This document shows positions 49,393 to 62,945 of a stretch of 64,000 nt of DNA, in pieces. The stretch's first letter is position 1, and each line of letters opens with the position of its first letter. This DNA comes from Fimbriimonadia bacterium. Lineage in GTDB: Bacteria > Armatimonadota > Fimbriimonadia > Fimbriimonadales > JABRVX01. The notes beneath the pieces were generated by a model. It saw only the letters and a list, made by a program, of their open reading frames with translations, was not told where the DNA came from and ran no database searches. The position numbers and the translations under genes were made by a program. Location of the stretch: contig JBGPGO010000002.1 of the NCBI GenBank assembly GCA_041483895.1, positions 1-64,000 on the forward strand. The letters are read 5' to 3'.

Positions 49393-50625
49393 CTACTGCG
49401 GCGGATCGGCCCGCAAACGAAGCGAATTGATCTTGATGAACCCTTCGGCGTCGCGTTGGTCGTAGCCGCCGGCGATGTCCATGCTGGAGAGCGCTTCGTT
49501 GTACAGGCCCGCCTCTGCCGAGCGGCCTGTGATCGTGACGTTGCCTTTGTAGAGTTCAAAGTTAACGGTCCCAGTGACGGATCTTTGGCTTTCGTCCATC
49601 ACCGCCGTTAGGAATCGGAATTCCGGTGAGAACCAGAAGCCGTTGTAGATCAGTTCGGCGAAGCGCGGCGACAGCGATTGCTTGATTCGGAGCACCTCTC
49701 GGTCCAGCGCGATCGTTTCCAGGTCCTGATGCGCCGCCCACAGCACCGTCCCGCCCGGCGTCTCGTACACGCCGCGCGATTTGATTCCGACGAAGCGATT
49801 TTCCACGATATCGATGCGCCCAACACCGTTCGCGCCAGCCAGGTCATTCAACATCAGGAACATATCGAGGGGATCGGTGATGGCGTGGGTCTTGGTGGTC
49901 GGCGATTGAGAGGAGTCGTCATTCCGACCCACGGCTACGGGGATTCCATGTTCGAATCGGATAGACAAGGCGGTCTTCTGATCGGGCGCGTCCAATGGAT
50001 CCACGGTCATCTGGAACATGTCGGCGGGCGGGGGCGTGGCGGGGTTTTCCAGCACACCGGCCTCGTAGCTGATATGCATCAGGTTGCCATCCGTGCTATA
50101 CGGCTTCGCCGCCGTTGCGGTCACGGGAATGCCGTGCTTCTCGGCATACGCGATAAGGTCCGAGCGGCCCGCGAACTGCTCCAAAAACGCGGTGGTCTTC
50201 CAGGGCGCGATCACCTTGATCCCCGGCGCGAGCGCGTAGTAGGCGAGCTCGAACCGCACCTGGTCGTTGCCCTTTCCCGTCGCCCCGTGGGACACATATT
50301 CGGCCCCTTCGCGCTGCGCAATCTCGATCTGCCGCTTCGCGATGATGGGCCGGGCGAGCGCCGTGCCCAACAGATATCGCCCCTCGTATAAAGCCGAAGC
50401 CTTCAGCGCCGTGAAGATGTAATCGGTCACGAACTCGCGCTTCAAATCTTCCACGAAAACCTTGGAAGCGCCGACCTTGATCGCCTTCTGCGCCGCAGCT
50501 TCGAAGTCCTCCCGCTGTCCCACGTCCGCGATGTACGCGATCACCTCGTGCCCCTCGTCGATCAACCACCGAAGGATGACCGACGTATCCAACCCGCCGC
50601 TGTATGCCAGAACAACTTTGCTCAT
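49393..50625 (-). CDS. argG: Argininosuccinate synthase
   Basis: [44 protein letters not shown]. Confidence 0.96.
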
Positions 50626-50701
50626 TGTCAACGAAGATACCGCAAAACGATGCCTCCGCGATGGTTTGCGGAGGCAACGACAGTGAAACTTCGTCCATGC
50701 G

Positions 50702-51472
50702 TCAAGGTGATCCGGTGAGGCCGTAGTTGATGAAAGTGATGTTGAGATCCGGCAGGTCAACCTGTCCGCTGCCATCGAGGTCCGCGTCCGGATCCGTTGT
50801 CTCGTATCCGACGAAGATGCTGTTGATGTCGGCAAGGTTGACAATGTTGTCCATATTGGAGTCGCCATTTATCAGCTCGATGTCGAGCCCATTCGACCCA
50901 TTGACTACATCGACAGAAGCGACTGTCGAGCGGAGCCAGTGGCTGATTTTCAAGGCGACGTCCCACGTGCCGGCTTCGACCGTTCCGATTGAATAGTTGG
51001 ACTGGGCATCCAAAGTGATCGGATAGCTGTGAGAGACATTGGTGGTCCCCGGATCACGGAATTCGAGCATCCCGCTCTGTCCGGTCGGATCACCCACAAA
51101 GGTATCGAGTGTCACGCTTCCGGTCATCGAAGCGGAGCCCGTGACGGTAACTGTGTAGTCGTTCCCATGAACCATGGCGTCCTTTTGGATGTTGCAAAAG
51201 TAGTAATACACGCCTGAAGTATTGAATACGACGATGCGCTTGGCATTGGTAATAATTTCACCAGTATCAAACTTTCCGTCTGGCGTGTAGTTGACGCCGC
51301 TGGTTGCGGTGTGCGTGTAGCCCTCATTATTGATCCAGCGGACTGAATCGCCTGGGTTGATTGTCACATTTTGTGGCATGAAGTCGAGATTGGAAATGTG
51401 AACGTCCACAACGGCACTAAATGCGCAAGTTGCGGTGATGGACGCCACAAGTACCAGCACTAGTTTGCCCAT
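50702..51472 (-). CDS. Secreted cupredoxin-domain protein with dockerin/EF-hand-like tail
   Basis: [13 protein letters not shown]...HTATS...[18 protein letters not shown]...[12 protein letters not shown]. Confidence 0.75.
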
Positions 51473-51577: not shown

Positions 51578-51808
51578 ATGGAAGAGGATTGGCATACCGG
51601 CGAGTTCCTGAGCTTCGGTGGTAAGGGCTGGCCTACGACAGACGAGGAGGCGGAAATGATCTTCCCTCGCCCTCCGAAAGGCGGCGATAAGGCGCTTCGT
51701 TGCTTCCGGCTGCTGCGCGATGACGGCAAGACCATCCACGAGGCGGTAGTGGAGACGCTGAGCGCCCTCGCCGGCCCCACACCGGAAGATGAAGACGACG
51801 AGGACTGA
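51578..51808 (+). CDS. Small acidic hypothetical protein or fragment
   Basis: ORF at the island edge ending EDEDDED; no motif. Confidence 0.4.
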   Translation: MEEDWHTGEFLSFGGKGWPTTDEEAEMIFPRPPKGGDKALRCFRLLRDDGKTIHEAVVETLSALAGPTPEDEDDED

Positions 51809-51840
51809 GCTTGCGCCACGGCTCTCCAGCAATCCATTAA

Positions 51841-51868
51841 CCTATCGATAATGGCTGTTTACGATAGG
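51841..51868. other. dif-like recombination site 1
   Basis: CCTATCGATAA-TGGCTG-TTTACGATAGG (11-6-11 imperfect inverted repeat). Confidence 0.7.
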
Positions 51869-52080
51869 AGCTCGTGTGTAAAGTTGTTGGAAAATAGCCC
51901 CGAGAGTGGCGCCAAGGTTACTCGGGGCCATATCCGAAGGGCTCCTTTTGTGCACACGCCTCTTAGGTCTCCACAATTGGATCAGAACGGGATTCTGTGA
52001 ATTCGCCAGCCGTTGGTCCCGATTGTAGGCCAATTTCCGTGATCACATATATAATGAAGCACGACTATCGAGGTGCCTCA

Positions 52081-53838
52081 ATGAGTATCAGCACAGATTC
52101 TACAAAAGCCGAGCAATTCGTAATGGCAGCGACGGTTACCGAAGTGGAAACCGAGGGGACGAAGGTTGTGCATGTTGATGGTCACACGATCGCGCTGATA
52201 CATCACAACGGGCAGATCTACGCGATCGACAATCGGTGCCCGCATATGGGCTTCCCGCTCGATCGCGGCTCCGTTCAGGATTGCGTTCTAACTTGCCACT
52301 GGCATCATGCACGCTTCGATCTCGCTAGCGGCGGAACGTTTGACCAGTTCGCCGGCGATGTTCGCGTGTTCCCTGTCGAGGTCCGCAAAGGTGACGTGTG
52401 GCTGGACCTCGCGCCTCGTAGGGATCAAAGCGCTTACCAGCGCGAGCGTCTCCAAGTCGGACTTGAGCGAGACATCCCTCTGGTCATCGGCAAAGCCGTG
52501 CTGATGTTGATTGACACTGGCGAAGATGCGGTCGAACCGTTCCGCATTGGCCTTGACTTCGGGGCACGCTACCGCTCCGCAGGATGGGGGCAGGGACTAA
52601 CGATTCACACTTGCATGATGAACCTGCTGCCGCACCTTGATGCCGACGATCGGCCCCTGGGGCTCTACCACGGTCTTTCAGCGATCACCCGCGAAACCAC
52701 CGGATCGCCGCCTCGTTTTGCAATTCGCCCCCTGCCGGACACGACGGCCGACATAGATACGTTCAAGCGCTGGTTTCGGCGTTTTGTCGAAGTGCGCGAC
52801 GCGGAAGGCGCGGAACGGTGCATCGTATCCGCCGTGCGTGCGGGATCCGGTTCTGTGCAGATGGCGGACATGCTGTTCGCGGCGGCAACGGACCACCGCT
52901 ACATCCAGATCGGACACGTGGCGGATTTCACGAACAAGGCGTTTGAGGCGCTTGATTGGGCCGGTTGGGAACACGCGGAGATTGTGCTGAGCAGCTTGGG
53001 CTCCGCCTACGCTAGGGCCGATCGGATGGAAGAGTCTAACGCATGGCGTCACCCAATCGATTTGATCGAAATCTTGGAAGAAGCGTTTGATGCGCTTCCT
53101 GTCGCCCTTGAAAATGGTCGCGAGAGGAGAGGAAGCTGGTCGGGCCTTGAGTCGAAGATCCCCGTGTTGCTGGGCGATGATCCACAGGTCATTGCCGACT
53201 CATTGTTGGAGGCGGTCCGCCAAGGAGCGACGGAGGATGACCTTGCCAGAACCGTAGCATACGCTGCCGCGCTTCGAATCGCGCGATTTCACATCAGCAA
53301 CGAATTCAGCGATTGGGACACAGCGCTGCACACGTTCACGTTCGCGAACGCGATCCATCAGGGTCTGCTGCGGAACCCTTCTCCCGAGCTGCTGCGAGGT
53401 GTGTTCGACGCGGCGATGAGCGTTTATCTCGACCGATTTCTTAACGTGCCACCGAGCCGCCTGCCGGAGCCGGATGATACCGTCGCAAAGCCCGAGGCGC
53501 TTTTGGACGAGCTTGCCGCGCTCCTGGATCGACATCAACAGGTGGATCACGCGGGCAAATTGGTCGCACAATATCTTAACAGCAATGGCGGGCTGAACCG
53601 GCTACTCGCAAAGCTTGGGAATCTACTATTAAGAGAGGATCGCAACTTCCACACAATTCAGATGGTTGAAGCGGCAATGCGGCAGTACCAAATGCACCGC
53701 GGCGCATCACAGGGGACCAATATATTGGTGGCTGCAGCCCGGTACCTTGCCGCGCATTCGCCTACAGTGCGCGCGCAGGGTCAGACCTATCGGATCGCGT
53801 CGCGGCTTCATCGCGGTGAGCATATTTATGAAGAGTGA
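52081..53838 (+). CDS. Rieske [2Fe-2S] domain protein with long helical C-terminal region
   Basis: CPHMG...CHWHHARFD; SD GAGGTG. Confidence 0.85.
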   Translation: MSISTDSTKAEQFVMAATVTEVETEGTKVVHVDGHTIALIHHNGQIYAIDNRCPHMGFPLDRGSVQDCVLTCHWHHARFDLASGGTFDQFAGDVRVFPVEVRKGDVWLDLAPRRDQSAYQRERLQVGLERDIPLVIGKAVLMLIDTGEDAVEPFRIGLDFGARYRSAGWGQGLTIHTCMMNLLPHLDADDRPLGLYHGLSAITRETTGSPPRFAIRPLPDTTADIDTFKRWFRRFVEVRDAEGAERCIVSAVRAGSGSVQMADMLFAAATDHRYIQIGHVADFTNKAFEALDWAGWEHAEIVLSSLGSAYARADRMEESNAWRHPIDLIEILEEAFDALPVALENGRERRGSWSGLESKIPVLLGDDPQVIADSLLEAVRQGATEDDLARTVAYAAALRIARFHISNEFSDWDTALHTFTFANAIHQGLLRNPSPELLRGVFDAAMSVYLDRFLNVPPSRLPEPDDTVAKPEALLDELAALLDRHQQVDHAGKLVAQYLNSNGGLNRLLAKLGNLLLREDRNFHTIQMVEAAMRQYQMHRGASQGTNILVAAARYLAAHSPTVRAQGQTYRIASRLHRGEHIYEE

Positions 53839-53858
53839 TAAGTCAATGGAGGTCCTAG

Positions 53859-54737
53859 ATGCCGCTCATTGACTATGGCGACGGTCTTGTCATCGATGCG
53901 CGAGACGGAATGACGGTCCTGGAGGCGTCGATTCAGCACGGGATCTCCCACATCCACGCCTGTGGAGGCAATGCTCGCTGCACGACTTGTCGGTTGAACG
54001 TCTTGGAGGGTCACGAGAATTGCCCTCCTATGAGCGAGGCCGAGCGCAAGGTCCTTGCCCTTACTGGTTACGAGCATCCGGTGCGGTTAGCGTGTCAGTT
54101 GCGACCGACTGGACCGATCAAGATTTGCTGTCTCCTCAAGGACTACCCAAAGAGCGACGCGACGCCGGAGGGCATGGCGAGGGAGCGCGACGTGGCCGTG
54201 CTTATGGCCGACATCCGGAACTTCACTTCCTTTGCCGAGCGCAATCTAGCGTTTGACGTTTTGCATCTGCTCAACCGCTATTTTGATCGCGTCGGGACCA
54301 TCGTCGAGGACAATCGAGGCAGGGTGATCACGTTTCTGGGTGACGGCGCAGTGTGCCTTTTCGAAGACCTGGATTCTGCGCGTGCCGCCGAAAGCGCGGT
54401 GCGAAGCGGCCTGGAAATTATCCGAGCAAGTGAAGTTTTCGGCCGCTATACCCAAGAGAGTTTTGCGTTCGAAATGAAGGTGGGAGTTGGGATCGCTTGG
54501 GGCCGAGCGGTGATCGGTCGACTTGGCTACTACAATCGATCTGATCTAAACGTTGTTGGGGACGTAGTGAACACTGCGAGCCGAGTACAAGATGTGACTC
54601 GCGACGTGGGTGTCTCACTTCTCGTATCGGAGCCGATCCGCGAGCTCATCGGATCGCGTTTCACTTTCGGCCAGGTGTTCACCGTCGGGCTGAAGGGGAA
54701 AGAGCTTCTTCACGACCTCCATGAAGTGCTGCCATAG
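53859..54737 (+). CDS. 2Fe-2S ferredoxin-fused class III nucleotide cyclase
   Basis: CGGNARCTTC...RLACQ; MADIRNFT, LGDG, GDVVNTASR, LKGK. Confidence 0.9.
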   Translation: MPLIDYGDGLVIDARDGMTVLEASIQHGISHIHACGGNARCTTCRLNVLEGHENCPPMSEAERKVLALTGYEHPVRLACQLRPTGPIKICCLLKDYPKSDATPEGMARERDVAVLMADIRNFTSFAERNLAFDVLHLLNRYFDRVGTIVEDNRGRVITFLGDGAVCLFEDLDSARAAESAVRSGLEIIRASEVFGRYTQESFAFEMKVGVGIAWGRAVIGRLGYYNRSDLNVVGDVVNTASRVQDVTRDVGVSLLVSEPIRELIGSRFTFGQVFTVGLKGKELLHDLHEVLP

Positions 54738-54748
54738 CCTGCGACAAT

Positions 54749-54776
54749 GCTATCGATAAAGGTTCTTTTCGACACC
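54749..54776. other. dif-like recombination site 2
   Basis: GCTATCGATAA-AGGTTC-TTTTCGACACC. Confidence 0.6.
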
Positions 54777-54935
54777 TAATCCGCCAGAGCAATTGTTCAT
54801 CCCGCTTCGCATCGGCTCGTTCAGAGTCCCAACAATCCGAATCGGCGATCAGCCTGGCGGAGTGGGGGCGATTCGAGGCTGGGCAGTAACTACGTGTTAT
54901 ACTGACTGGTAGCATCTCGTGCTAAAAGGAATTCT

Positions 54936-56696
54936 ATGAACCGCGCTATCATCTTCCTCGCCGCTGTCGCGGCCCTCGTCGCATCCGCCACCGGGCAGAC
55001 GGCCTTTACCTATCAAGGTCAACTCATGCAAAGCGGCCTCCCTGTCAGCGGGAATGTCAACCTTATCTTTACTCTCTACGATGACCCGTCTCTGACCGTC
55101 AATCATCAGATCGGCAATCCGATAACCCTGAACAACCAGCCACTCTTGAATGGGCTGTTCACCGTTCCGCTGGACTTTGGCGCGAATGCGTTCCCCAGCG
55201 CGCGCAGGTGGGTGCAGGTGAGCGTCAATGGCGTTATTCTGTCTCCCCGTCAAGAAGTCACGCCAACTCCATACGCTCTTGGCCTTCGGCTGCCGTATGT
55301 GGGCAACGCCAGCGTGGACGGCAACGCCTTCTCCGTCACCAACAGTTTCAGCAGTGGCACCGCGCTTTATGGGCATAACCTGGATAATGGCATCGGTGTC
55401 TTTGGAGAAAGTCCCAATGGCAACGGCGTCTATGGCCAGAGCGGTAGCGGCTTCGGCGTCTACGGCCTGGCGCTCTCCGGGACAACCAAGGCAGGGATCC
55501 GGGGCATATCCACAGCTCCCTCCGGCATGGGAGTTTGGGGCTCTAGCGGTGGAGGCATAGGAGGAATCGGCGTCTTTGGCGAGAGCGATATTGGGACCGG
55601 CGTCGAGGGCTGTGCGACTGGATCCGGCTTTGGTGTATATGCAAGCAGCGACACCGGCTACGGTGTATATGCAGGCAGCGACACTGGCACCGGAGTCTTT
55701 GGTCTGAGCAACACTGGCTACGGAATCCAGGGCGCCAGCAACGCAGCGGCGAACTACGCAGGAGTCTACGGTCAAGCCCTCGGTACCGACAGCAATGGTG
55801 TTTTGGGCGAGGCCAACAACGGCGTGGGCGTCTACGGCCAGGCCACGACCGGCACTGGTGTCTTCGGATGGAGTAAGACAAGTGGTATTGGTGTCGAAGC
55901 AGTAAGCGCCAGCGGCCTCGGTATCGATGGCTACAGCAGCAGCAATTACGGAATCCGTGGGATTTTCGCCAACGGTAGCAATCTCAACGTCAGCATTTTC
56001 GCTAAATCTGCCGTCTGGGGCGATTCCGGCACCGGTAACGGAGTCATGGGAACAAGTAGCATGGCGACCGCGGCGGGTGTCGTTGGCTGGTCGCCGATTA
56101 GCATCGGTGTCTATGGCTACACTACCAACGGGAACGCGATCTACGGCGCACGTACCGGAACCGGTTGGGCAGGCTATTTCCAAGGACCACTGTATGCGCA
56201 AAGCGCGAGCGCGAGCATCAAGGCGTTCCGCATCGACCACCCTGTGGATCCAGAGAACAAGTATCTTCAACATTCCAGCGTCGAAAGCCCGGACATGAAG
56301 AACGTCTACGATGGAAATATAGTTTTGGGTAACAACGGCGAAGCGTGGGTGGAGCTGCCCACCTACTTCGAGGCCCTCAATCGCGACTTTCGGTATCAGT
56401 TAACATGTATCGGGCAGCCGGCGCTCGTATATATCAAGCAAGAGATTTCCGGTAATCGATTCCTGATCGCGGGCGGCAAGAAGGGCATGAAGGTCTCTTG
56501 GCAGGTGACCGGCATTCGGCAGGACCCCGCCGCCAATCTGTATCGCATCGAGGTCGAGCCGAACAAGGCCGACAAAGATCGCGGCAAGTTTTTGGTTCCG
56601 GAAGCCTACGGCCAACCAAAAGAGAGCGGGATCAACCCTCCACCGAATTCTCAGGAGACTGCGACGACAGCGCCTGGGAATCCGAGGAAGCGATAA
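54936..56696 (+). CDS. Secreted GVYG-repeat fibre/adhesin-like protein with S74-chaperone-like C-terminus
   Basis: Signal peptide; FTYQGQL N-domain; many G(V/I)(Y/F)G repeats; FRIDHPVDPENKYLQHSSVESPDMKNVYDG. Confidence 0.75.
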   Translation: MNRAIIFLAAVAALVASATGQTAFTYQGQLMQSGLPVSGNVNLIFTLYDDPSLTVNHQIGNPITLNNQPLLNGLFTVPLDFGANAFPSARRWVQVSVNGVILSPRQEVTPTPYALGLRLPYVGNASVDGNAFSVTNSFSSGTALYGHNLDNGIGVFGESPNGNGVYGQSGSGFGVYGLALSGTTKAGIRGISTAPSGMGVWGSSGGGIGGIGVFGESDIGTGVEGCATGSGFGVYASSDTGYGVYAGSDTGTGVFGLSNTGYGIQGASNAAANYAGVYGQALGTDSNGVLGEANNGVGVYGQATTGTGVFGWSKTSGIGVEAVSASGLGIDGYSSSNYGIRGIFANGSNLNVSIFAKSAVWGDSGTGNGVMGTSSMATAAGVVGWSPISIGVYGYTTNGNAIYGARTGTGWAGYFQGPLYAQSASASIKAFRIDHPVDPENKYLQHSSVESPDMKNVYDGNIVLGNNGEAWVELPTYFEALNRDFRYQLTCIGQPALVYIKQEISGNRFLIAGGKKGMKVSWQVTGIRQDPAANLYRIEVEPNKADKDRGKFLVPEAYGQPKESGINPPPNSQETATTAPGNPRKR

Positions 56697-56724
56697 CTCT
56701 TAGATCCTTGGCCCACGTGGGATT

Positions 56725-56752
56725 GGTATCGATAATGGACATTTACGATAGC
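56725..56752. other. dif-like recombination site 3
   Basis: GGTATCGATAA-TGGACA-TTTACGATAGC; 22/28 identical to site 1. Confidence 0.7.
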
Positions 56753-56759
56753 AAGACAA

Positions 56760-59700
56760 TCACTTGCCGGTTAGTCGTTTTGCGGCTCTAACATATAGCT
56801 CAAGGATGAGACCGTCCACCCTGGCTATCGGACCTTCAACGGTAAAGGATCCAACCTCGTGCGATCCGTCGAACGGATATTTGTCCAGAAACGCCTTGAT
56901 GGTGATATGTTTGCCCGAGACCTGATAGCGCCCCGCAAGGCGATATGTCCCGGGAGCGGTGGTCGTCTCCCAATAGGCGATCGGGCTGTCGGAGCCCCGC
57001 GTGGTTCGCTCCCACAAGACGGCCTCCATCTTCTCGGTCAGGCGCTGCGGATCGCCAGGTCGGCCTGTTAGTTGGAAGTCCGGCTTGACAAGCGCGGGCC
57101 GCGGAAGGGTGAGGCGAATGCTTGATCGGTCCTCCTCGGCCAGCACACCAATTGGGAAGTCTTGTCCCTTCTCCTCAAACACCTGTGGCTGTTGCACGCA
57201 ATGGATCTCGCCGGCGATTTTGGGAACCTCACTCTGAGCGTATGCGAACAGGGCCCCAACGCTGACGCGGTCGCCGCGAAGCGCGGCTCCGCTCTTCATG
57301 CCCTGCAAGAGACTGTACGTGAGGAGGCCTTGGTTGAACCGGGATGCCTCGTAGCTGGATCGGTCTTTCGAGCATCCAAGCAATACGTGAAAACCCGTCG
57401 AATTCTGCAACTCCGCCAGAGCGCGGATTAACTCCGTAGGCCTGTCGCGCGGAGCCGTGATATCGACCGCCGCTCCGGCCCCGCAGGTGTCCAGGATGAT
57501 GGCCCTCTTGTTGGCAGGCACCTCTTTCACCCATTCCCACAGGTCCTCATCGGTGATGGCAGTGGCTTCGCGAACGGCAGGAATCGATAGATCGGATCCC
57601 GTCGCTTCCATCGTCAGGTACGCGTAAATGTCGAGGGGTCCCTTCTTGTATGTAACCCCATGACCGGCAAGGTAGACAAGCAGCACGTCGCCCGGCTTTG
57701 CCTTCCTCGCCGATTCGAACGCCTGACGAATGCTGTTCCTGGTCGGGGGCTGGGCGGTCACATGAAACTGCTGGAATGAGGCCCGCTGCTTGGCATCCGG
57801 CGCGCAATCGGTAAGCAGGCTGAGGTGGGTTCTCTCCACTCCGAATGGCCTCTTCGCGCCGATCAGCAGCGCCTGAGCGTAGTCCGCCGCGTCCTTTCCC
57901 GAAAAGCGCAGGCGCAAGGACGGCGAGGCGTAGTCGCAAGTACCCACCACGATTGCATAAAGCTCCGTCGGCGCCGATTCCATTGGATTGGATGGTGGGG
58001 CCACCGCCTTGACACCGCGGCTGACGAGGTATCCTTCTTTGTTCTCCACCTTCACTTCGATCACATTCTCTTGATCGTTATAGAAATGGCTTCGGTATGA
58101 AGTTAGATCGATATTCAGTAAGGCGTCGTTGGCATCCGGATTGACCCGCGGTCCTCGTGCGTCCGCCTCCATCATGGTGCCGTTGACAAAGATGTGTACT
58201 TTGCCGATCCCCCCACCCTGGTTCGTGAGAGATATGCGAGCGTTGGAGTTGCCGTCGGTTAGCTGGACGGTCACGGCCGGATAGAGCTTTAAGTCACAGT
58301 TTTTGCACGGAACCGGAGGCAGCTTCTCGTGCTTCGATATTTTGGAGAGCAGACCGGGAAGGAAATAGTAACGGCGTAACTGGTCAAGCTCGACGGGCTC
58401 CATACCGATCACCCAGTGAAGACCATCGACACGCCCGTTATTGCTGCCGTCATATCGGCCTTCGAGGTCCACAACTGCCCACGTTCCGTCGGTGAAACTG
58501 ACCGACTTGCAGAGTTCCTTGCCGCTTGCGGCGTCCCATAGACGGGCCGTTTTGTCGTAGCTCGCCGTGAGCACCTGCCTCCCGTTGGGTGAGAACACTG
58601 CCGAACTGACCCCGTTTGTATGCCCTTCGAATCGCCGCACCTCCTTCCCCGTTTCGACATCCCAGAGACGGGCCGTTTTGTCCCGACTCGCCGTCAACAC
58701 GTGCCTACCGTCGGGCGAGAACACTGCCGAGTAGATCGCATCTGTATGTCCATCAAATCGCCTCACCACCTTCCCCGTCTCTGCATCCCATAGACGGGCT
58801 ATGTTGTCTCCGTCGAAACTCGCTGTGAGAACGCGGCTACCATCGCGCGAGAACACTGCCGAGGTGACTTGACTTGCGGGTCCCTCGAACCGTCGCACTT
58901 CCTTACCTGTCTTAGCATCCCATAGACGGGCCGTTCTGTCTCCACTTGCCGTGAGCACGTGCCTGCCGTCGGGCGAGAACACCGCCGAGAAGACCCAGAG
59001 TGTGTGCCCTACGAACCGCCGCACCTCCTTACCTGATTCAACATCCCAGAGGCGCGCTGTTTTGTCGTAGCTCGCCGTGAGCACGCGCCTACCATCGGGC
59101 GAGAACACCGCCGATTCGACTTGACTTGCGTGTCCTTCGAACCGCCGCACCTCCTTGCCAGTTTCGGCATCCCATAGACGGGCCGTATTGTCGTAACTTG
59201 CCGTGAGCACGTGCTTGCCGTCGGGCGAGAAGATTGCCGAGTGGACCCTATCTGTGTGCCCCTCGAACCGCCGCACCTCCTTCCCCGTCCTGATATCCCA
59301 TAAGCGAGCGGTCTTATCCCCCGCCGCCAGCATATACCGGCCATCCGATGAGAACACGGCTGAGTTGACTTGACTTGCATGCCCTTCGAACTGCCGCAGC
59401 TCCTTGGCTGTTTCGGCATCCCATAGACGGGCTGTGTTGTCCCAACTCGCGGTCAGCACGTGCCTACCGTCGCGCGAGAACACCGCCGAGTTGACCATAT
59501 CTGTGTGCCCTTCGAACCGCCGCAGCTCCTTTCCTGTTTCGGAATCCCATAGACGGGCCGTTCTGTCATGGCTCGCGGTCAGCACGTGCTTACCGTTGGG
59601 CGAGAAGACCGCCGACTTGACCCGATCCTTGTGCCCTTCGAATCGCCGCAGCTCCTTCCCTGTTTCGGTATCCCACAGACGGGCCGTCTTGTCGGTGCTA

Positions 59701-60350
59701 GCCGTCAGTACGTATTTTCCGTCGGGCGAGAACACTGCCGACTGGACCAAATCTGTGTGCCCTTGGAATCGCCGCAGCTCCTTACCCGTCTCTGCATCCC
59801 ATAGACATGCCGTATTGTCGTAACTCGCCGTGAGCACGTACTTACTGTCAGGTGAGAATACGGCTGAGTTGACCAAATCTGTGTGCCCTTCGAACCGCCG
59901 CAACTCCTTTCCTGTTTCGGCATCCCAGAGGCGCGCTGTCTTGTCTTCGCTCGCCGTGAGCACGTACCTACCGTCCGGCGAGAACACAGCCGAGTAGACC
60001 CAGCTTGTGTGCCCTTCGAACCGCCGCACTTCCTTACCCGTCTCTGCATCCCATAGACGGGCCGTTTTGTCACCACTCGCCGTAAGCACGCGCTTGGAGT
60101 CGCGCGAGAACACTGCCGAGCTGACCCCACCTGTATGTCCTTCGAGCCGCCGCACTTCCTTACCCGTCTCTGCATCCCACAGACATGCCGTCTGGTCTTG
60201 GCTCGCGGTCAGCACGTATCTTCCGTCGGGTGAGAACACGGCAGTGTTTACGCCTATGTGACCTGTCTGCACTACTAATCGCGGCACATCTGTCTGGGCT
60301 AAGGCCGACGCTGCCGCGAAGCCGAGCAGCAGCAGCGCGAGTTGCTTCAT
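56760..60350 (-). CDS. WD40-repeat (14x) plus caspase-like (C14) protein
   Basis: Signal peptide MKQLALLLLGFAAASALA (alternative GTG start at 60416); 14 WD40 repeats; LAGHG and ILDTC dyad. Confidence 0.9.
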   Translation of the reverse strand: MKQLALLLLGFAAASALAQTDVPRLVVQTGHIGVNTAVFSPDGRYVLTASQDQTACLWDAETGKEVRRLEGHTGGVSSAVFSRDSKRVLTASGDKTARLWDAETGKEVRRFEGHTSWVYSAVFSPDGRYVLTASEDKTARLWDAETGKELRRFEGHTDLVNSAVFSPDSKYVLTASYDNTACLWDAETGKELRRFQGHTDLVQSAVFSPDGKYVLTASTDKTARLWDTETGKELRRFEGHKDRVKSAVFSPNGKHVLTASHDRTARLWDSETGKELRRFEGHTDMVNSAVFSRDGRHVLTASWDNTARLWDAETAKELRQFEGHASQVNSAVFSSDGRYMLAAGDKTARLWDIRTGKEVRRFEGHTDRVHSAIFSPDGKHVLTASYDNTARLWDAETGKEVRRFEGHASQVESAVFSPDGRRVLTASYDKTARLWDVESGKEVRRFVGHTLWVFSAVFSPDGRHVLTASGDRTARLWDAKTGKEVRRFEGPASQVTSAVFSRDGSRVLTASFDGDNIARLWDAETGKVVRRFDGHTDAIYSAVFSPDGRHVLTASRDKTARLWDVETGKEVRRFEGHTNGVSSAVFSPNGRQVLTASYDKTARLWDAASGKELCKSVSFTDGTWAVVDLEGRYDGSNNGRVDGLHWVIGMEPVELDQLRRYYFLPGLLSKISKHEKLPPVPCKNCDLKLYPAVTVQLTDGNSNARISLTNQGGGIGKVHIFVNGTMMEADARGPRVNPDANDALLNIDLTSYRSHFYNDQENVIEVKVENKEGYLVSRGVKAVAPPSNPMESAPTELYAIVVGTCDYASPSLRLRFSGKDAADYAQALLIGAKRPFGVERTHLSLLTDCAPDAKQRASFQQFHVTAQPPTRNSIRQAFESARKAKPGDVLLVYLAGHGVTYKKGPLDIYAYLTMEATGSDLSIPAVREATAITDEDLWEWVKEVPANKRAIILDTCGAGAAVDITAPRDRPTELIRALAELQNSTGFHVLLGCSKDRSSYEASRFNQGLLTYSLLQGMKSGAALRGDRVSVGALFAYAQSEVPKIAGEIHCVQQPQVFEEKGQDFPIGVLAEEDRSSIRLTLPRPALVKPDFQLTGRPGDPQRLTEKMEAVLWERTTRGSDSPIAYWETTTAPGTYRLAGRYQVSGKHITIKAFLDKYPFDGSHEVGSFTVEGPIARVDGLILELYVRAAKRLTGK
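58520..60260 (-). repeat. ~126-bp tandem near-identical WD40-coding repeats
   Basis: Recurring GCATCCCATAGACGGGCCG...GCCGTGAGCACG...GAGAACAC.GCCGA...CCTTCGAACCGCCGCA. Confidence 0.9.
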
Positions 60351-60829
60351 CGGTGCCTCCACGCTTTGCCAAACCATTTGTCCAACTCGTAAACGATTCC
60401 ATGCGTGACCCTTCACATCGTTCCTCCTCTTTAATAACCGAACGTCATCGACCGGAAGTAGCAGGATTGTGGCTTCTTCATCAGATTGCCGCCGGACCCT
60501 TCCCCCGCACGCCCTGCAATCGCTTCGGCCCCTCGACGATGCCGACCAACGTGAGGTGAGCATCAAAGAAGTACCCGAAGTGAACCACTGTACCCTATCA
60601 TACTTGTTGCGCCGTTCCGGGCATGCGTCTGCTTTCCGGCATACCCATGTAGGGGAAATACTCACTGGTTGGAGTCGGTCAGAGGGAAGGAGGTCACACA
60701 TAGGGAGGATATCGCGACTTTAGTCCGCATTAGGAGCAAATAGCCATGCGGTCCTTTTTTCCGAACCATCGATAATGCCGCCCGGGTTCGGTGCGCCGGT
60801 GAACCTCTCACCCAAGGGACCTGGGCGAT

Positions 60830-61075
60830 CTATGCTAGCTCAGATAAAAGCCTTGTCGCCCGTCCCTGCAGGTCCTCCCGGGCGTCATCATAGATCATCA
60901 GCGTCGCAAGCTTGGAATGGCGGCTGAACTTCTGTGCCCCACGCACGTCGCCGTTTGTGGCGTGCAGGTAGGCAGTGATGCTCGTTTGCCTCAACTTGTG
61001 AGGGCTGAAGTTCTGGATCCCGGCCATGATACGGAGGAAGCGTTTTTGAACAAACCGCTCGGTTCGCGTTTTCAA
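60830..61075 (-). pseudogene. Tyrosine recombinase/integrase C-terminal remnant
   Basis: SPHKLRQTSIT...GDVRGAQKFSRHSKLATLMIYD (HxxR, H, catalytic Y); N-terminal domains absent; abuts the tRNA 3' end. Confidence 0.85.
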
Positions 61076-61081
61076 GAGGAT

Positions 61082-61157
61082 TGGTACACCCGCAGGGACT
61101 CGAACCCTGGACCCACTGATTAAGAGTCAGTTGCTCTACCAACTGAGCTACGGGTGC
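61082..61157 (-). tRNA. tRNA-Lys(CTT)
   Basis: GCACCCGTAGCTCAGTTGGTAGAGCAACTGACT-CTT-AATCAGTGGGTCCAGGGTTCGAGTCCCTGCGGGTGTACCA; 76 nt with encoded CCA. Confidence 0.97.
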
Positions 61158-61241
61158 ACCGTGGAGGCCGATTATGGCCCGAGGGAGCGTGGCCCGTCAA
61201 GGCCGGCAGGACCCCGTAGGCCGCAGTGGAAGGGTATTCCC

Positions 61242-62945
61242 ATGAAAGCCTGCCAAGCCGTCCTCGGCCTGTGTGCCCTCGTTTCGGTGGGTTTCGCCCA
61301 GGCTCCATCCACCTGGCCAGCGGCAGAGTACAAACGGTACGTCGAGCTCAACGGCAAGTTCGGGCAGCCAAAGCTGCAGGTGATTGCCAAGACCGCAATG
61401 ATAGCGGCAACCACCGGCCCCCTCGCCATCCATTCCGGCCTCAAAGTGTTGGAGATGGGCGGCAGCGCAGTTGATGCCGCCGCCGCGATAAGCCTCGCGC
61501 AGATCGTCCTCAGCGGCGGGTCATGGAACAGCTTCGCCGGCATCTTCAACATGGTCTATTACGACGCGAAGACCAAAAAGGTGTACTGCCTGAACGCGGG
61601 ATACGACACGTTCAAAGAGGAGACTGAGCCGCTGACGATCCCAGCCAAAGGCAAACCCAGTGGGCGCACGGCGATGGTGCCCGGCTACATCGCTGGCGTC
61701 ACGGAAGCACAGAAGCGATTCGGAAAACTGACGCGAGAAACGGTGTTTGCCGCCGCCATCGATCTCGCCGAAAAGGGAATTCCGGTTGACTACGCGCTTG
61801 ACTTGATCATCAATAGCCGCAAGGATGTAATCACGAGGCTGCCGGAAATGAAGGCCATATTGACCAAACCAGATGGAAGTTTCTACAAGCTCGGGGAGAC
61901 GTTCAAACAGACGGACCTCGCGAGCACATTGCGGAAGGTTGCGGCGCTAGGTCCCGACTACATTTACAAGGGTGCGTGGGCGAAGAAGTTTGTCAGCACT
62001 ATCAAGCGGGAGGGCGGCAAGGCCACGCTGGAAGACCTGAGCAGCTACAAGGCAACATGGTCCGAGCCGTTGCACGCAAAGCTGAACGGTGCGGATGTGT
62101 ACACGGTAGGGATACTAGAGCTGGGAGGCGTCCAGTTGGTGGAGGCGCTGAATCTGGTGGAGGCGGATCACCTATCGCAAAAAGGATCGCCCACCAGCTC
62201 GGCACGGGCGCTGTTCGATCTGATCCAGATTGGCCGAATCGGGCACATCAACAGTTACCTGATGTCAACGCCGTATACGGACGCCGCATTTGAAAACCGC
62301 GTCAAGCCGGAGGCAGCGATACAGACGTTGAAGAAACTGAAGCAGCCGAAAACGGTCGGCGCCATCAAGGTCGGGAATCATTCCGACGGAATTGTCGTCG
62401 TGGACAAAGACGGCAATATCGCGGCCCTCGTTCACTCCAGCAACGATATCAGTTGGGGGACAACCGGCATCTTTGTCGATGGCATTTCCATCCCCGACTC
62501 GGCCTCCTTCCAGCAGGATTTCGTGCTAAAGGCGGGTCCTGGAAAGCGGTTTCCCAATCGCACGAATCCAACGATTGTGCTGCGCGACGGCAAGCCGGTT
62601 CTCGCCTGCAGCGCCGTCGGCGCGGGCCTGCACGAAACGATGCTGCAGGGTCTCGTCTATTGCCTTCTATATGGAAAAGACCCGAAGGCCACGATAGACA
62701 GCCCCACGTATTGGCTGCCCGACTTTACGGGGAAAGGCTTCGAGTATCAGACGGTGAATAAGGGCGCTTTCCCGGCAGATGTATTGGAGTCGGTCCGCAA
62801 GATGGGCCAGCAGGTGTTGGAGATTGAGCCGAAGCAAGGCTTTTCGCTGATTGGGTACTGGATCGGCGTCCAGCTTGATCCGGCGACGCGGGAGCTCAAG
62901 GGCGCGGTCAACCCGATTCTCAATGGGATCGTCGAAGGCTACTAG
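61242..62945 (+). CDS. Gamma-glutamyltransferase family Ntn-hydrolase (secreted)
   Basis: GGSAVDAAAA, MVPG, AIDLAEKG, VVVDKDGN, PGKR. Confidence 0.85.
   Translation: MKACQAVLGLCALVSVGFAQAPSTWPAAEYKRYVELNGKFGQPKLQVIAKTAMIAATTGPLAIHSGLKVLEMGGSAVDAAAAISLAQIVLSGGSWNSFAGIFNMVYYDAKTKKVYCLNAGYDTFKEETEPLTIPAKGKPSGRTAMVPGYIAGVTEAQKRFGKLTRETVFAAAIDLAEKGIPVDYALDLIINSRKDVITRLPEMKAILTKPDGSFYKLGETFKQTDLASTLRKVAALGPDYIYKGAWAKKFVSTIKREGGKATLEDLSSYKATWSEPLHAKLNGADVYTVGILELGGVQLVEALNLVEADHLSQKGSPTSSARALFDLIQIGRIGHINSYLMSTPYTDAAFENRVKPEAAIQTLKKLKQPKTVGAIKVGNHSDGIVVVDKDGNIAALVHSSNDISWGTTGIFVDGISIPDSASFQQDFVLKAGPGKRFPNRTNPTIVLRDGKPVLACSAVGAGLHETMLQGLVYCLLYGKDPKATIDSPTYWLPDFTGKGFEYQTVNKGAFPADVLESVRKMGQQVLEIEPKQGFSLIGYWIGVQLDPATRELKGAVNPILNGIVEGY

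Follow-up and report, generated by a model that had tools for sequence, protein, structure and literature searches.

The dif-module system of Acinetobacter is called unique to that genus in the abstract of one report (PMC13141974), and another describes dif modules on Acinetobacter chromosomes (PMC12907356). Integrons carry defence genes among their cassette cargo, according to the abstract of a third source (PMC12614218), and Xer systems with a single recombinase, XerS/difSL, XerH/difH and archaeal XerA/dif, are treated in a fourth (PMC3025954). Such capture and shuffling of gene modules by site-specific recombination is thus a well-documented property of integrons and, since more recent times, of dif modules. 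The locus described here is an island in which 28-bp imperfect inverted repeats separate cargo genes between argG and a tRNA-Lys gene. It lies on the chromosome of a soil/sediment bacterium of the Fimbriimonadia (Armatimonadota) and within the window, the whole 64,000-nucleotide stretch analysed, which is contig C2:1-64000 of a draft genome of 3.95 Mb (43 contigs, 57.9% guanine plus cytosine (GC)); this genome is designated G000, and C1, C2, C4, C6, C7, C11, C13, C14 and C16 are its contigs. With a probability of roughly 0.65, a dedicated Xer-like tyrosine recombinase, here termed rec, has the 28-bp elements as its core recombination sites, and these delimit exchangeable cargo slots in a plasmid-like integrated element. 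The evidence for this reading consists of the site family itself, its clustering, its linkage to rec, the covariation of site arms with rec lineage, a hybrid site and a recurrent order of sites.

A family of 28-bp sites in eight clusters

An earlier note, made from the letters of the window, had described three 11-6-11 inverted repeats (sites 1, 2 and 3) and a lone arm, ACCATCGATAA, at 60765-60775, set in a row with a Rieske protein plus cyclase, a fibre protein and a WD40-caspase and followed by a recombinase remnant and a tRNA gene. Read directly, the repeats and the arm are as described, the map of open reading frames (ORFs) agrees with the layout, and the remnant and the tRNA-Lys gene are both present (Table 1). 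The nearness of two sites to stop codons was also borne out: site 2 begins 11 bp past the stop of the cyclase gene, and site 3 begins 28 bp past the stop of the gene at 54936-56696, its other end being 8 bp short of the stop of the convergent WD40 gene. Of the cargo labels, Rieske plus cyclase and WD40 stand in Pfam, whereas "fibre" is merely descriptive and "caspase" comes down to one weak PADLOC match. The 9-mer TATCGATAA occurs three times in the window against 0.24 expected, a count reached by 0 of 100 shuffles, and a 22-nt pattern searched on both strands with up to 3 mismatches finds the three sites alone in the 64 kb, 0.43 matches being expected.

The site consensus in the genome, nnTATCGATAA-TGGnnn-TTTTCGATAnn, consists of two near-identical inverted arms of 9-11 bp around a 6-bp spacer of TGG and three variable bases; these dimensions uphold the distinction from integron attC drawn in the earlier note. 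With up to 2 mismatches allowed, the genome holds 27 forward and 24 reverse matches, compared with 2 and 2 for a reversed-pattern control, so that the motif is not at background frequency. A position weight matrix (PWM) built from 27 sites recovers 28 strong sites (at least 28 bits) and 7 weak ones (12-25 bits), the reversed matrix giving 3, and 17 sites match a 24-nt pattern exactly. Conservation is limited to the 28 bp, save for a 9-nt left-flank motif in one class, and at least five spacer classes recur (TGGCCC, TGGCGA, TGGACA/G, TGGTTN and TGGCTG). The strong sites are confined to 6 of the 43 contigs, where they form 8 clusters. A reading of the sites as repetitive extragenic palindromes or miniature inverted-repeat transposable elements was rejected, there being about 30 copies, every one tied to rec-bearing islands. 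A scan of viral contigs for the site gave 0 matches.

Table 1. Locations of the island features in the window and of the related features elsewhere in the genome; window positions are given without a contig name, and the spacer orders run in the direction of the sites.
Feature	Location	Strand	Details
Left-flank accessory motif	51827..51835	+	CAGCAATCC; 5 bp 5' of site 1
Site 1	51841..51868	+	CCTATCGATAA TGGCTG TTTACGATAGG; PWM 44.7 bits; island left end
Cargo module 1: Rieske protein and cyclase	51997..54737	+	Pfam PF00355, PF00111, PF00211
Site 2	54749..54776	+	GCTATCGATAA AGGTTC TTTTCGACACC; PWM 39.3 bits; slightly degenerate right arm
Cargo module 2: 586-aa secreted Gly-rich repeat protein	54936..56696	+	translation
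Site 3	56725..56752	+	GGTATCGATAA TGGACA TTTACGATAGC; PWM 46.0 bits; between convergent gene ends
Cargo module 3: 1313-aa WD40-repeat protein	56760..60701	-	Pfam WD40
Degenerate site	60765..60790	+	left arm ATCGATAA and TG.CG of a TGGCGA-class spacer; right arm lost
rec remnant, last 66-68 codons	60833..61036	-	tblastn 94% (residues 252-315); 88% (residues 248-315)
56-bp stretch downstream of tRNA-Lys	61026..61081	-	island right boundary; common to two tRNA-Glu loci
tRNA-Lys (CTT)	61082..61157	-	ARAGORN; single tRNA in window
Intact rec copies	C4 150752-151696; C7 50317-51249; C7 66568-67512		protein 90-91% identical
rec fragments	two on C11; one on C6; one on C1; window 60833-61024		C1 copy: 250-aa broken frame
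Site clusters	C1 36 kb; C1 187-195 kb; window; C2 247-254 kb; C4 140-159 kb; C6 17 kb; C7 51-79 kb; C11 95-133 kb
Spacer order, window			CTG, TTC, ACA, (degenerate CGA-type), rec remnant
Spacer order, C2b			CTG, ACA, CGA
Spacer order, C7			TTC, ACA, CGA, [X, rec], inverted CCC
Spacer order, C4			TTC, CGA, [X, rec], inverted CCC
Spacer order, C11			same pattern repeated with deletions and an IS21

The recombinase and its linkage to the sites

The protein rec is a 315-amino-acid (aa) Xer-like tyrosine recombinase, of which tblastn finds 3 intact copies (311-315 aa) and 5 broken ones, all within site clusters. It matches Pfam PF00589 (Phage_integrase, E 4.6e-18) and an N-terminal SAM-like domain; residues R164, H260, R263, H287 and Y296 align with the catalytic residues of XerD/XerA, a Lys falls no more than one position from the catalytic one, and among structural sequences an archaeal XerA-type protein, 4a8e, gives the best match (E 6.7e-18). 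Its scores are nevertheless below the NCBIfam cut-offs (in parentheses) for XerC, 104.9 bits (335.15), XerA, 97.3 (220), XerD, 86.5 (329.6), and XerS, 58.9 (267), and below those for integron integrases, TIGR02249, 19.9 bits (265), and NF011946, 18.8 (435). The genome separately encodes two canonical Xer-type proteins (C13 and C14) and two phage-type integrases. The remnant in the window keeps the H-x-x-R, H and Y but is without the first catalytic Arg and the Lys region, and to judge from this translation the window's own rec is dead, intact paralogues being present elsewhere in the genome.

The earlier note had taken the symmetry of the sites to suggest that one recombinase binds both arms, possibly one of the family of the remnant, and the full-length paralogues agree with the latter. 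All four TGGCCC sites sit 42-43 bp 5' of a rec ATG, and 4 of 4 copies with a preserved 5' end have one; each such site is preceded by a conserved flank of about 46 bp and lies shortly ahead of the ribosome-binding site (RBS). A run of 33 nt covering the site and the approach to the RBS is identical in these four copies, whereas the rec genes are about 84-85% identical in DNA and their homology ends at the stop codon; this identity despite a gene divergence of about 15% argues for constraint on the site.

Homologues of rec, at 37-57% identity, occur mainly in cyanobacteria and also in Margulisiibacteriota and other metagenome-assembled genomes (MAGs), and 119 plasmid records contain one, nearly all in single copy. 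A 9-6-9 inverted repeat of the form AA-N6-TT lies within 130 nt 5' of the start at 51 of the 67 homologue loci that have at least 130 nt upstream, versus 99 of 1257 control windows (7.9%), a comparison to which no probability is attached, many of the loci being related. The arms differ by lineage, being TTACGTAAA/TGACGATAA in Nostocales, GTCTGATAA/GTCCTAAAA in another group and TATCGAAAA/TATTGATAA in a third. Five cyanobacterial genomes have one perfect site each and are otherwise at background, no second copy of a site was found within ±10 kb at any homologue locus inspected, and the metagenome and genome collections searched gave homologues of no more than 57% identity and no second array outside the bacterial family. 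Among other Armatimonadota, 26 of 400 genomes have rec homologues (E ≤ 1e-40), nearly all in single copy.

The closest genomes compared, G001 and G002, are of the same family, and their rec proteins are 72% and 59-60% identical, respectively, to that of G000, the latter gene having an in-frame TAG. Both genomes have TCACGATAA arms at the rec-proximal site and at one or two further sites. The G001 counterpart of the ParB-N6/N4 methylase, 64% identical to that of C11, is followed by a 132-aa and a 227-aa protein and then directly by a TCACGATAA-arm site; the 227-aa protein is 30% identical to a 226-aa protein of G000, where the same arrangement is present three times. In this sister genus the conserved backbone is thus closed by a site with arms that have altered along with those of its own rec-proximal site, and in the sequences compared the site arms covary with rec lineage. 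The scan of relatives proposed in the earlier note found a single occurrence of the G000 motif, with one mismatch, in 1 of 60 genomes; these relatives are without rec, most having merely distant Xer-like matches to it.

These comparisons bear on the alternative that the islands consist of true dif modules, or resemble integrative mobile elements exploiting Xer (IMEX), so that the host XerC and XerD act and the 315-aa rec is a passenger or a resolvase. The 11-6-11 geometry with inner ATAA/TTAT is indeed of the Xer-site type and two canonical Xer-type genes are present in the genome. For these housekeeping genes, on C13 and C14, a search with a dif consensus gave one single-copy candidate dif, GATAA-TAAGTA-TTATGTTAA, at C16:36693; its left arm (CCGATAA) resembles the island arms. 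However, an island site has two similar arms, in contrast to the candidate dif with its distinct XerD-type arm, the arms change together with rec lineage both in G001 and G002 and across phyla, a site is fixed 5' of rec itself, and the motif is nearly absent from the 60 relatives, most of which have merely distant Xer-like matches to rec. Action of the host enzymes is accordingly a quite improbable explanation.

It should also be considered that the palindromes might be operators of a regulator, or of rec as a self-repressor, and mark a regulon rather than points of crossover. The site between the conserved upstream flank and the RBS of rec has a typical operator position, and its left arm contains a -10-like GATAAT. 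Among 31 sites (28 strong and 3 weak), however, 14 are in tandem gaps, often directly past a stop codon, 11 are between convergent gene ends and 6 are between divergent genes, so that the family is not restricted to promoters; 7 of the 31 overlap an ORF call, mostly an over-extended start. No sigma-70-like promoter was predicted on the rec strand at the rec-proximal site, the scanned stretch containing one unrelated match on the opposite strand, and the one at site 3 is at chance level; scans of the window for sigma-70-like promoters and for terminators gave nothing above chance. In view also of the motif's near-absence from relatives and of a break in homology between copies that falls within a spacer (described below), an operator function is extremely improbable.

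Island plan, cargo and evidence for past exchange

The reading in which rec acts on the sites as its own core sites is developed further by the arrangement of the islands. The island backbone comprises MT-A70, the ParB-N6/N4 methylase, DUF927 and small proteins, and in C4, C7 and C11 it ends in a TGGTTN site preceded by CAGCAATCC. This motif also precedes site 1 of the window, and in an alignment it recurs at equal spacing before 6 further sites of the TGGTTN/TGGCTG/TGGACA classes. The rec gene and a variable gene X are bracketed by inverted sites, TGGCCC on the 5' side and TGGCGA past the 3' side; gene X encodes 371, 641, 143, 141+263 or 866 aa, and its products have no significant Pfam match. 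Among rec copies keeping their 3' end, a TGGCGA-type site is next in 6 of 7, with its right arm toward the gene, and all three TGGACA sites have a site of the YTG/TTC class before them and a TGGCGA-class site or remnant after. Equivalent slots hold cargo that is unrelated at both the DNA and protein level, bar shared repeat or tail domains. The three sites of the window and the seven of C11 are co-oriented, and contigs with such co-oriented arrays are chromosomal pieces of 155-525 kb. In G002 (C57 10523-11658), the rec with the in-frame TAG is bracketed directly by two inverted sites and is without gene X.

According to Pfam and PADLOC, the modules between sites include kdpABC-porin-kdpD; an efflux set of MFS, RND, MFP and OMF proteins; two type I restriction-modification (R-M) systems; a cyclic-oligonucleotide-based antiphage signalling system (CBASS) with CD-NTase and SIR2-SAVED; a DruE-like helicase; CHAT-TPR proteins (including single genes) and CHAT-NB-ARC proteins; a cyclase-NB-ARC protein with TPR partners; extracytoplasmic function (ECF) sigma/anti-sigma pairs with giant surface proteins; and the three modules of the window. 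Judged by these annotations, the site-bounded modules are functionally coherent, and the proposal that the sites delimit cargo modules is in keeping both with this and with the clustering of sites in islands. A CBASS pair, made up of a SIR2-SAVED effector and a CD-NTase, follows a rec copy that breaks off past residue ~157 (C1 195159-198695).

In the window, the island has three intact sites, a degenerate distal (D) site and a rec reduced to its last 66-68 codons. The degenerate site scores below 12 bits and is 57 bp beyond the rec stop, the place of the D site, of TGGCGA class, in intact units (C4, C7, C6 and C11 compared). In other copies rec is followed by a TGGCGA-class site, and since the lone arm matches the left arm of that site and some of its spacer, it is best regarded as a decayed site rather than a chance match. 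Homology to rec ends at 61025 and similarity to tRNA flanks starts at 61026; the 5' three quarters of rec and the proximal site have therefore been lost, by an event that, on these breakpoints, fused rec codon ~252 to the tRNA flank. The 61026-61081 stretch is 86% identical (blastn) to the downstream flank of a tRNA-Glu (C4 170197-170284, the 56 bp themselves corresponding to 170197-170252) and partly similar to that of a second tRNA-Glu (C2 258836-258874). It contains a hairpin, GAACCG-AGC-GGTTC, and could be a common terminator or, for islands inserting at the 3' ends of tRNA genes, a conserved terminal sequence. The window island has the appearance of a larger element, plasmid-like and integrated, that has since decayed, and not that of a free-standing integron-like platform, and the site system would account for the four unrelated cargo units between argG and tRNA-Lys and for their borders.

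A past crossover is indicated by the recurrent order of spacer classes around unrelated cargo and by a site on C11, at 100274, which is a hybrid. It has the 46-bp flank of the rec promoter side, the left arm and the TGGC of rec-proximal sites, and then switches within the spacer to the spacer end of the TGGCGA class and a D-type right flank, with no rec after it. A homology break inside the 6-bp spacer is the scar that would be expected from site-specific exchange between two site classes, and gene capture is suggested by the anatomy of the islands together with this one site. The hybrid site is also relevant to the possibility that the sites are fossil attachment scars, left by whole elements of one family that accreted in tandem and decayed without exchange at the level of modules. 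Such a history would fit C11, which seems to hold two or three tandem, partly deleted units of backbone, site and rec, as well as the broken state of 5 of the 8 rec copies, the tRNA genes and classical phage-type integrases that border the C7 and C11 regions, and the lack of a live rearrangement in reads. Accretion of whole elements does not predict, however, that the same ordered spacer classes bracket unrelated cargo across islands; in addition, the site cores are near-invariant while the rec genes have diverged, and the hybrid records a crossover between two classes of site. The fossil-scar explanation is therefore considered unlikely.

Several observations weigh against exchange by rec, at least at present. 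Part of the region is contained in 22 sediment-metagenome runs, and the four examined are thin data (Logan contigs at about 5x, fragments of about 0.4-1.8 kb), in which neither a product of recombination nor a joint at any site turned up. The rec copies are old (about 15% DNA divergence) and mostly broken, and the system may therefore be largely fossil. Identical spacers occur in 1 of 18 pairs of co-oriented neighbours versus 2.0 expected, so that avoidance is not significant (P = 0.38). The GC of the island, 0.56-0.60, equals that of the genome, 0.579, and there is therefore no compositional sign of recent import. Since the homologues on cyanobacterial replicons have a single site each, the usual job of the family may be resolution of replicons and not cassette traffic. 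An upstream site was found in just 1 of 11 inspected homologues from other Armatimonadota (43-47% identity), and synteny with the two same-family genomes stops at argG, next to the island. The argG homologues of G001 and G002 are 69-70% identical, nothing else of window positions 40-64 kb is collinear in these genomes, and the gamma-glutamyltranspeptidase gene was not found in them with the query used. Runs X1 and X3 contain a joint of 51726 to 62208 with 7 extra letters (depth about 5.8), by which the island, the tRNA and some of the transpeptidase gene are bypassed; both ends lie away from any site, the flanks are dissimilar, and the joint is possibly an assembly chimera.

A mechanism in which rec uses the sites for exchange can be proposed as follows. 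A single enzyme would presumably bind both arms, because these are nearly symmetric, and the asymmetric spacer would set the orientation of strand exchange and the choice of partner. Together with its sites, rec would belong to a family of plasmid-like elements (ParB-N6/N4 methylase, DUF927 and small proteins) that left the 8 islands. The plan of these, backbone, TGGYTN-class site, TGGACA, TGGCGA, [X, rec] and inverted TGGCCC, would mark slots for unrelated cargo such as R-M, CBASS, STAND/CHAT/NB-ARC, kdp, the RND pump and the modules of the window. Recombination would take place between same-spacer sites located on different copies of the element or on different replicons, and formation and resolution of a cointegrate would exchange or capture the content of a slot. 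Neighbours with unlike spacers would not recombine, and arrays would therefore stay stable. A present-day reaction at the window island would need one of the 3 intact rec paralogues to act in trans. A stronger version of this proposal, that rec reads the five or more spacer-coded classes in their fixed order, such that pairs of unlike sites form stable slots whose content, be it anti-phage systems, transporters or surface proteins, is swapped with that of other copies of the element rather than excised, would constitute natural heterospecific cassette exchange and is tentatively put forward, the balance being somewhat against it. If it applied, the system would offer a compact natural toolkit for multiplex cassette exchange, made up of a single small enzyme and a number of orthogonal 28-bp sites.

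Some pairs of sites might instead be shufflon-like inversion switches, which flip modules without exchanging them. The rec gene and gene X always lie within inverted sites, an inverted TGGACG pair brackets a type I R-M module on C7, and the C11 hybrid has the structure expected after exchange of right halves. On the other hand, intergenic sites swap neither coding ends nor promoters in any obvious way, and the three sites of the window are co-oriented with spacers that all differ, so that no inversion is expected there; a switch function is very improbable. The C7 pair, at 55699 (-) and 61747 (+), is the genome's best candidate for inversion driven by rec.

With regard to the cargo of the window, the first gene of module 1 (51997-53838, +) encodes a 613-aa Rieske-domain protein whose C-terminal 480 residues match no family, and the second (53859-54737, +) encodes a 292-aa protein in which Fer2 (a 2Fe-2S ferredoxin domain) is fused to a class III nucleotide cyclase that matches PADLOC Pycsar-cyclase (PycC) models (best E 2e-17); the two may be a redox-sensing signalling or defence pair. 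The 586-aa protein of module 2 has no Pfam or PADLOC match. In the 1313-aa protein of module 3, the caspase match (E 1.7e-6) covers residues 913-1147, and the region 58513-60286 (-), within the WD40 part, is a long run of DNA repeats of about 126 bp that are mutually 74-77% identical. To the left of site 1, the gene at 50705-51472 (-) encodes an ordinary secreted protein of 256 aa with a weak plastocyanin-like domain, whose C-terminal ~140 residues are matched at more than 100 genomic positions; 82-aa and 108-aa ORFs there have no paralogue and no Pfam match, and no backbone remnant was found on that side. The argininosuccinate synthase ORF (49393-50868, -) is over-extended at its 5' end, its homologues in G001 and G002 aligning from residue 78-81.

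Comparison with known systems

No description of this combination of rec and sites was found in the literature searched. It differs from dimer resolution by Xer/dif, with one dif per replicon, in having 28 strong sites in 8 clusters beside a separate dif-like candidate on C16. In the Xer systems with a single recombinase the site adjoins the recombinase gene, and the present system resembles XerS/difSL, XerH/difH and XerA/dif in having one Xer-like enzyme with a near-palindromic site directly 5' of its gene, a resemblance that extends to the cyanobacterial homologues of rec with one site per genome. It differs from them in its roughly 30 sites and 8 rec copies, in their location in islands and not at the replication terminus, in the position of rec under all the NCBIfam Xer cut-offs, and in the retention of canonical Xer genes by the genome.

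As in integrons, a tyrosine recombinase has a primary site beside its own gene, units of cargo ended by sites are set in rows, and the cargo includes defence genes. However, rec is far below the cut-off of the IntI model TIGR02249; the sites are, by sequence, 28-bp palindromes of a duplex type, whereas attC sites are long, folded and recombined as single strands; and the modules are often multi-gene, lie in either orientation and are without a common Pc promoter logic. In engineered recombinase-mediated cassette exchange, heterospecific lox or FRT sites differ in their spacers, like sites pair, and the content of a slot is swapped without loss. The islands share with it the placement of cargo between two sites that have common arms and differing spacers, but they are natural, and their spacer specificity is putative.

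The nearest described system is the Acinetobacter dif module (pdif, XerC/XerD). The likenesses are the 28-bp 11-6-11 sites with inner ATAA/TTAT around self-contained accessory modules, the existence of several spacer variants, and the joining of a conserved backbone to variable modules. The arms in G000 are, however, near-symmetric and accompanied by a dedicated rec that carries its own site, whereas the Acinetobacter modules have two different arms and depend on the host XerC/XerD. The sites of the window and of C11 are co-oriented, in contrast to the alternating C/D modules on Rep_3/OrfX plasmids, and the setting is that of chromosomal islands in Armatimonadota with mostly defence or accessory cargo instead of antibiotic resistance. 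Heterospecific cassette exchange, if it takes place, would add a third route of modular gene capture to those of the integrons and the dif modules of Acinetobacter. The Armatimonadota case, with its own recombinase and spacer-coded classes of site, would make modular exchange of the Xer type a more general builder of defence and accessory islands.

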